Of a stretch of DNA of 64,000 bases, positions 55,193 to 55,348 are shown piece by piece. Made by a program: the position numbers and the translations under genes. Every line of letters starts with the position of its first letter. The stretch's first letter is position 1. Below the pieces are notes generated by a model. That model was given only the letters and a program-made list of their open reading frames with translations, had not been told where the DNA came from and made no database searches. The DNA lies in the NCBI GenBank assembly GCA_016840085.1, contig JAEOTA010000086.1, positions 1 to 64,000 on the forward strand, read 5' to 3'. Origin of the DNA: Promethearchaeota archaeon (GTDB lineage Archaea > Asgardarchaeota > Lokiarchaeia > Sigyniarchaeales > SOKP01).

Positions 55193-55348
55193 GTGGCTCC
55201 AATAGATAAAGAACTTCAAAATGAAATTAAGAAAGGTGTTTCACTCCAAAAAGTTAATGAAGAAGAGCTAAGAAAGAGAGAGGAAGAGAAAAAGAAACGC
55301 ATGGAAGAATTAGAAAAAGTTAAAGAAGCTTTAGGGGCAAAAGACTAA
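55193..55348 (+). CDS. 51-aa microprotein with WH2-like motif (not in ORF track)
   Basis: GTG start preceded by AAGGTG SD-like (55177-55182); MAPIDKELQNEIKKGVSLQKVNEEELRKREEEKKKRMEELEKVKEALGAKD; T-rich tract after the stop. Confidence 0.75.
   Translation: MAPIDKELQNEIKKGVSLQKVNEEELRKREEEKKKRMEELEKVKEALGAKD

Follow-up and report, generated by a model that had tools for sequence, protein, structure and literature searches.

The window, a 64,000-nucleotide stretch of an Asgard archaeal contig, encodes a 51-amino acid microprotein with a single helix-LxKV-helix unit that resembles the WH2 and beta-thymosin actin-binding motifs. The gene is real and highly conserved in Loki-type Asgard archaea, and its family may well represent an as yet undescribed, still unproven class of archaeal actin regulators. 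Indirect support for a link to actin comes from fusions of the unit to profilin and from the co-immunoprecipitation (co-IP) of a repeat paralogue with Lokiactin. We hold it about evenly probable that the window protein is itself a WH2/thymosin-like binder of monomeric Lokiactin.

The microprotein gene and its conservation

An initial annotation had placed a 51-amino acid ORF in the gap between rimI and pelota, and the ORF is present exactly as claimed, with a GTG start and a TAA stop. Pfam and synteny identify the two neighbours (GNAT acetyltransferase, PF00583, E 3e-16; pelota), which are given for context only:

54643–55101 (+): GNAT (RimI-like) acetyltransferase, upstream neighbour
55177–55182 (+): SD-like AAGGTG, 10 nt 5' of the GTG
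55193–55348 (+): microprotein gene, one helix-LxKV-helix unit, 51 amino acids
55350–55400 (+): T-rich tract, possible archaeal terminator (weak evidence)
55484–56566 (+): pelota (eRF1 domains 1–3), downstream neighbour

The SD-like element is borne out by the recurrence of GGTG/GGTT-type elements at similar spacing among the orthologues of the genus (30 loci). The T-rich tract begins at 55350 as described but is absent in most orthologues and has no terminator-like stem. A scan of the locus for sigma-70 promoters and terminators, with a model not apt for archaea, found neither. The ORF had also been called unannotated, which is true of the ORF track; the exact protein is nonetheless a gene called by NCBI, with orthologues listed as 'hypothetical protein'.

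Full-length orthologues (71–94% identity) are encoded in 33 of 36 genomes of the same genus. Profile matches extend through the families of one Lokiarchaeia order (125/134, 14/14, 1/1, and 4/4 genomes), and about 143 of the order's 153 genomes carry orthologues. The median dN/dS over 30 genus loci is 0.09, with third positions the most variable, and this value leads us to reject a chance ORF. At these loci the start codon swaps at one same codon among GTG (14), ATG (10), TTG (5), and CTG (1). Outside the order, a profile search matched 11 of about 245 genomes at E ≤ 0.05, with about 12 expected by chance. The conservation that the initial annotation had proposed to look for in Asgard genomes is therefore found within one order only, and the chance-level count among these roughly 245 genomes leads us to reject an Asgard-wide family. 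A search for 'longer' homologues returned nothing beyond one fragment and one chance helix. Copies 78–90% identical to the window protein occur in NCBI metagenome-assembled genomes labelled Hod-, Thor- or Hermodarchaeota (P0042, P0043, P0048, P0054, P0077, P0090, P0101, and P0107). The GTDB genomes of other Asgard orders hold no such copies, and the labelled genomes are likely mislabelled bins.

The order rimI-ORF-pelota is kept at 30/30 genus loci and, whole or in part, in other families (L039, L041, L042, L047, and L035). Together with the K/R/E-rich helix, this would suit a small ribosome- or translation-associated factor, such as a hibernation or rescue helper. We consider such a role very improbable: the linkage to rimI and pelota is lost in several orthologues, including that of P. 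syntrophicum, searches gave no significant ribosomal-protein match, and the repeats and profilin fusions described below would be left unexplained.

The cultured L. ossiferum and P. syntrophicum both encode orthologues (UYP46132.1 and QEE14640.1, respectively). Accession offset, mass, and the mass of a neighbour match the L. ossiferum protein (annotated as 69 amino acids, 8.24 kDa) to GNAMCCOK_02436, which was quantified in 16 of 16 published proteomes of this organism (bioRxiv 10.1101/2025.11.30.690169, Supp. Table 2). Proteomics, one of the checks that the initial annotation had proposed, thus confirms expression of the orthologue. With a value of 18.4 in these proteomes, the orthologue stands some 3 log2 units below Lokiactin (21.7) (bioRxiv 10.1101/2025.11.30.690169), an abundance that would be low for a bulk sequesterer if proteome values are comparable.

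Anatomy of the unit

The AlphaFold2 monomer model (pLDDT 86) predicts a helix (residues 6–14), an extended segment (15–22), and a second helix (23–49). The actin-binding motifs of WH2 and thymosin proteins have been described with this same layout of helix, motif, and second helix (PMC7407642). A Foldseek search of the 51-residue model against the PDB gave no significant match, the model being too short. Residue by residue, the unit maps to the window as follows:

55208–55234 (+): helix 1, residues 6–14, amphipathic, with L8 and I12 on the hydrophobic face
55235–55255 (+): extended linker G15-V16-S17 and L-Q-K-V motif (residues 18–21), Ile-to-Leu spacing of 6, as in WH2
55259–55339 (+): helix 2, residues 23–49, E/K/R-rich, position-specifically conserved

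[quoted passage not shown] In the genus alignment, I12 is conserved in 30/30 sequences and position 8 is L, M or I in 30/30. The linker and motif residues V16, L18, K20, and V21 are likewise 30/30. Position 19 varies (Q/T/E/S), which leaves the motif of the window protein with a single basic residue; LKKV is found in some orthologues and repeats.

The initial annotation had described the remainder as a tail resembling a single alpha-helix. The tail is indeed an E/K/R-rich helix but not generic filler, since its conservation equals that of the WH2-like half. Residues R29, E30, E32, K33, K35, R36, M37, E39–K44, and A46–G48 are 30/30 in the genus, and Arg36 (55298–55300) is the sole invariant residue across single and repeat units, with L18 nearly so. 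Such position-specific conservation, and Arg36 in particular, argues that helix 2 is a selected surface rather than a generic charged helix.

This most conserved part of the unit (Arg36 and helix 2) has no WH2 counterpart, which would fit a general helical interaction module for a partner other than actin. Candidate partners include RHH regulators, small GTPases, and extended profilins, through their tail. In that case any likeness to WH2 would be convergent or due to chance, and the recovery of the repeat protein with Lokiactin would be indirect or an antibody cross-reaction. We judge such a module somewhat unlikely and weigh it further below against WH2/thymosin-like binding of Lokiactin.

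Resemblance to WH2 and beta-thymosin motifs

The WH2 motif proposed at the outset stands in part: residues 8–21 align ungapped to tandem N-WASP WH2 (PDB 3M3N), but the core reads LQKV, not LKKV. The motif by itself is weak. A strict WH2 pattern occurred twice in the six-frame proteome, compared with 0–3 times in shuffled sequences, and a loose form 17 times, compared with 16–29; on these counts the pattern alone could be a product of chance, which would yield it about once per genome. The Pfam WH2 model, another check that the initial annotation had proposed, did not match the window protein, and no family member reached the gathering cut-off (23.1 bits for WH2, PF02205; 24.8 bits for Thymosin, PF01290). 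The best E-values within the family were 0.0067 for WH2 and 0.024 for Thymosin, both below cut-off. Repeat units scored 11–13 bits against Pfam WH2, with nothing over the cut-off in five genomes. Genome-wide scans with both models missed the window ORF and also gave matches in control genomes. The chance-level pattern and sub-threshold Pfam scores both speak for a module with a non-actin partner.

At the level of the family, unlike the motif of the single protein, the WH2 signal is specific. Among 177,635 PDB sequences, the best match of our profile A1 was tandem N-WASP WH2 (E 0.036). With profile A3, N-WASP WH2 came second, behind a designed zipper, and 2VCP and Spire were also listed. No WH2 chain in the PDB was matched by profile A2, which covers the N-terminal half only, and a single-sequence PDB search with the window protein returned chance helices only. 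Profile A3 was built from archaeal units only and was also run on 1.84 billion representative proteins, yielding 72 matches at E ≤ 0.001. Nine of these were foreign and long and covered only profile positions ~2–30. Pfam WH2 lies above its cut-off in seven of the nine and below it in an eighth, and the ninth has none; an animal (Lottia) WH2 protein is among the nine. That the foreign proteins matched are nearly all WH2 proteins argues against a non-actin module. However, the E-values of these matches arise from summed weak repeats, so they show what the unit resembles and not common descent. Three unassigned metagenomic WH2 proteins (P0213, P0218, and P0220) have an acidic or charged stretch after the motif, like the archaeal unit.

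The thymosin-like features lie in the Promethearchaeum-type orthologues, which have an Ile-to-Leu spacing of 8 and a DKSK-type linker and align ungapped to thymosin beta-4 in 4PL8 (E 0.028). Neither linker nor spacing is present in the window protein (spacing 6). One orthologous group hence spans both spacings, that of WH2 in the window protein's family and that of thymosin in the Promethearchaeum type, which also argues against a non-actin module. In ESM features, Thymosin was the nearest named family (0.85–0.87), a lead only.

The unit shares with WH2 domains (N-WASP, WIP, Spire, and cordon-bleu) a 9-residue amphipathic helix, the Ile-to-Leu spacing of 6 with a Gly, and a following L-x-K-V. 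It aligns ungapped to both 3M3N and 2VCP, and it likewise occurs singly, in tandem or with profilin. It differs in its score below the Pfam cut-off, its one basic motif residue, its free-standing 51-amino acid archaeal gene, and a long conserved helix that starts two residues past the motif. With the beta-thymosins (e.g., thymosin beta-4 and ciboulot), it shares the form of a free peptide of about 50 residues, the succession of helix, linker, motif, and second helix, the existence of single-unit and multi-repeat forms, and, in Promethearchaeum-type orthologues, the 8-residue spacing and DKSK-type linker. In contrast, the window protein has WH2 spacing without the thymosin linker. The C-terminal second helix of beta-thymosins caps the pointed face of actin; the archaeal helix 2, though conserved, has an earlier start and a greater length and shows no sequence relationship to it. 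Because the Pfam tests failed and the unit has an extra conserved helix, we file it under neither family. By its architecture and context we consider it WH2/beta-thymosin-like, and by this likeness it may work as those motifs do.

Two archaeal systems offer further comparison. Asgard two-domain gelsolins carry WH2-like four-residue motifs (LRRV, LKHV, and LVDV), an L-x-x-V that contacts actin near Asp25 in gelsolin crystal structures (PMC9433394, PMC7444086). There the motif is a linker inside gelsolin that lacks the WH2 helix, whereas in the microprotein helix and motif stand alone. In Pyrobaculum, arcadin-2 maintains archaeal actin as a monomer through its C-terminal helix, which docks in the hydrophobic groove, a precedent for the independent invention of a groove-binding helix in archaea (PMC5173319). 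Arcadin-2 is a larger protein, however, with its helix in an orientation reversed relative to thymosin and no LKKT-like motif reported (PMC5173319). Our comparisons found no sequence link between arcadin-2 and the microprotein family.

The genome also holds a second, truncated WH2-like frame (L105:1469–1612, −; G000 C56:3471–3611). It is the genome's top Pfam WH2 match (E 1.95), has orthologues in 0/134 family genomes, and is probably a remnant.

A repeat paralogue recovered with Lokiactin

Eight genomes of the Promethearchaeum family encode a paralogue of 479–488 amino acids with 9–10 copies of the unit at a period of 45–48 residues:

L032:1864–3327 (−) (G055 C1:4726360–4727826): ten-repeat protein; also at L031, L033, and L049

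It scored 68–111 bits on the single-unit profile, compared with at most −1.4 for 1000 shuffles, and from this sequence evidence we regard its homology to the single unit as secure. The ten-repeat protein was not seen within the window protein's own family.

By mass and gene order, we identified the L. ossiferum repeat protein (488 amino acids, monoisotopic mass 56.41 kDa) as GNAMCCOK_04085: in our ORF calls, as in the tag numbering, tag 04087 (57.98 kDa) follows two genes later and 2DGel1 (04136, 36.60 kDa) some fifty genes later. A published co-IP of Lokiactin shows this protein enriched at log2 4.53 (adjusted p 0.002), with 44 peptides and 70% coverage (bioRxiv 10.1101/2025.11.30.690169, Supp. 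Table 2). In the same experiment, actin itself (4.44) and the gelsolins (2.1–4.0) were all less enriched (bioRxiv 10.1101/2025.11.30.690169). The passages searched in the two versions of that paper do not mention GNAMCCOK_04085. The protein ranks 4th among the non-contaminants of some 570 proteins tested, a figure that we derived from the table's own p-value adjustment. As it was picked by sequence before the table was seen, a rank in the top four is unlikely to be luck, and it argues against a non-actin module. The co-IP was cross-linked, used one antibody, and is noisy, with roughly at least 100 rows above log2 1. Rank 3 appears, from gene count and a motif, to be a FolE-like enzyme, evidently noise. 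Such apparent false positives favour a non-actin partner.

The single-unit orthologue GNAMCCOK_02436 was not significantly enriched (log2 0.57, p 0.042, adjusted p 0.105) (bioRxiv 10.1101/2025.11.30.690169). Its value lies between those of the two profilins (log2 1.07 and 0.31) (bioRxiv 10.1101/2025.11.30.690169) and so neither supports nor excludes monomer binding.

The repeat protein's enrichment is like that of gelsolins and unlike that of profilins, as would be expected if the unit bound the sides or ends of Lokiactin filaments, mainly via helix 2. The repeat would then act as a nebulin- or tropomyosin-like ruler or bundler, and a single unit would compete with it or cap filament ends. The regular 45–48-residue period suits this role. 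So do the 34–41-residue helices of a low-confidence model (pLDDT 56, no alignment), used for secondary structure only, in which helix 2 is predicted to continue into helix 1 of the following unit. We find filament binding unlikely, since a helix that occupies the cleft between subdomains 1 and 3 will as a rule collide with the filament contact, as established for WH2 and arcadin-2 (PMC5173319), and avidity alone could account for the stronger enrichment of the repeat protein.

Fused forms and extended profilins

The unit follows a profilin domain within one ORF in G211, G214, G210, and P0224 (four copies). The profilin domain of these fusions matches the profilin-family chains 5ZZA_P, 5YED, and 7PBH (E 2e-9 to 7e-5). 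The fusions also have a C-terminal domain in common and probably reflect one event. This attachment of the unit to profilin argues against a non-actin module.

A looser copy of the unit, preceded by an LRxxIMxELK-type helix and followed by an RHH-like domain, occurs behind an LRR or a Ras-family GTPase. One such protein is encoded in the genome of the window:

L104:1363–2682 (−) (G000 C24:13862–15181): LRR or Ras-GTPase protein with degenerate unit and RHH-like domain

Others lie at L106–L110, L115, L116, L134, L135, and L048. These copies in LRR-RHH and Ras-RHH proteins are the main reason why we keep a non-actin partner among the possibilities. The fused copies retain mainly the L-x-K-P and helix 2 part, which would also agree with filament binding through helix 2. 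If the unit does bind actin, the same proteins could, speculatively, be actin-sensing DNA binders.

Proteins of about 250–265 amino acids (L129–L131; G185, G187, and G189) carry a single unit (E ~1e-7) at their C-terminal end, after a proline-rich linker. Extended profilins of about 205–225 amino acids are widespread (L143–L157; in this genome, C22:38665–39321 and C24:106392–107069). Their helical tail is conserved and begins much like the N-terminus of the microprotein, though it does not score on the unit profile.

Proposed function and origin

In the reading that we favour, the free-standing peptide would bind the Lokiactin monomer in the manner of WH2 and beta-thymosin, and helix 2 may add a second contact with actin. 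The peptide could buffer the monomer pool, either holding monomers as thymosin does or handing them on with profilin. With nine to ten copies of the unit, the repeat protein of Promethearchaeum and L. ossiferum would bind Lokiactin multivalently. The initial annotation had suggested sequestration or nucleation; a single unit is unlikely to nucleate, and nucleation would fit the repeat protein instead.

Actin regulation in Asgard archaea is held to rely mainly on profilins and gelsolins (PMC13716822; bioRxiv 10.1101/2025.11.30.690169), and the WH2 likeness in print is that of the four-residue gelsolin linkers only (PMC9433394, PMC7444086). In a literature search covering few subscription papers, we found neither a stand-alone WH2/thymosin-like peptide nor a tandem array described from archaea. 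Actin binding by the unit would give Lokiarchaeia a third class of regulator, made up of a monomer buffer and a multivalent repeat protein, and the latter could be the missing nucleator or scaffold of crawling protrusions.

A common origin with the eukaryotic motifs would make the archaeal unit a stem form that bridges both spacings in one group and already existed as a free peptide buffering monomers, as a fusion to profilin, and as a ten-repeat protein serving as nucleator or filament scaffold. In that case the WH2/thymosin toolkit would be older than eukaryotes. We think this quite improbable. Matches beyond the order occur only at chance level, which leaves descent shared with eukaryotic WH2 unsupported, and a family confined to one order, with none in the remaining Asgard classes that we searched, is better explained by an independent origin or by heavy loss. 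Even if convergent, the WH2 solution would have arisen on archaeal actin.

Actin and a polyproline protein in this genome

The genome encodes two near-identical Lokiactins (C38:1310–2452, L051; C83:176166–177311, L052), one of them on the contig of the microprotein. Together with orthologues of the microprotein in L. ossiferum and P. syntrophicum, within the same order, they mark the genome as that of a Lokiarchaeia-type Asgard archaeon. Their cleft-forming segments and the acidic positions 24/25, 100, and 334 match eukaryotic actin in the alignment, and the surface that the proposed monomer binding would require is thus available. Two more distant actin-family genes lie on C51 and C79.

Downstream of pelota, the window contains two further genes:

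57678–58313 (+): all-helical protein of 211 amino acids
58444–58896 (+): polyproline protein of 150 amino acids

The first lies directly upstream of the second, has no significant Pfam match, and may be BAR-like. In the polyproline protein, the N-terminal half is helical or coiled-coil, a polyproline tract follows, and the C-terminal helix (LRGxIMxELK) is conserved. A fixed operon of microprotein, BAR, and polyproline genes is ruled out by the position of the polyproline gene in L. ossiferum, about 240 kb from the microprotein gene. The gene adjoins elf1 both here and in L. ossiferum, and orthologues about 45% identical are found in three closed Promethearchaeum-family genomes. Its layout is WASP/VASP-like, with no Pfam support, and the protein is a possible profilin ligand. 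The genome also carries a paralogue (G000 C69:139999–140451).
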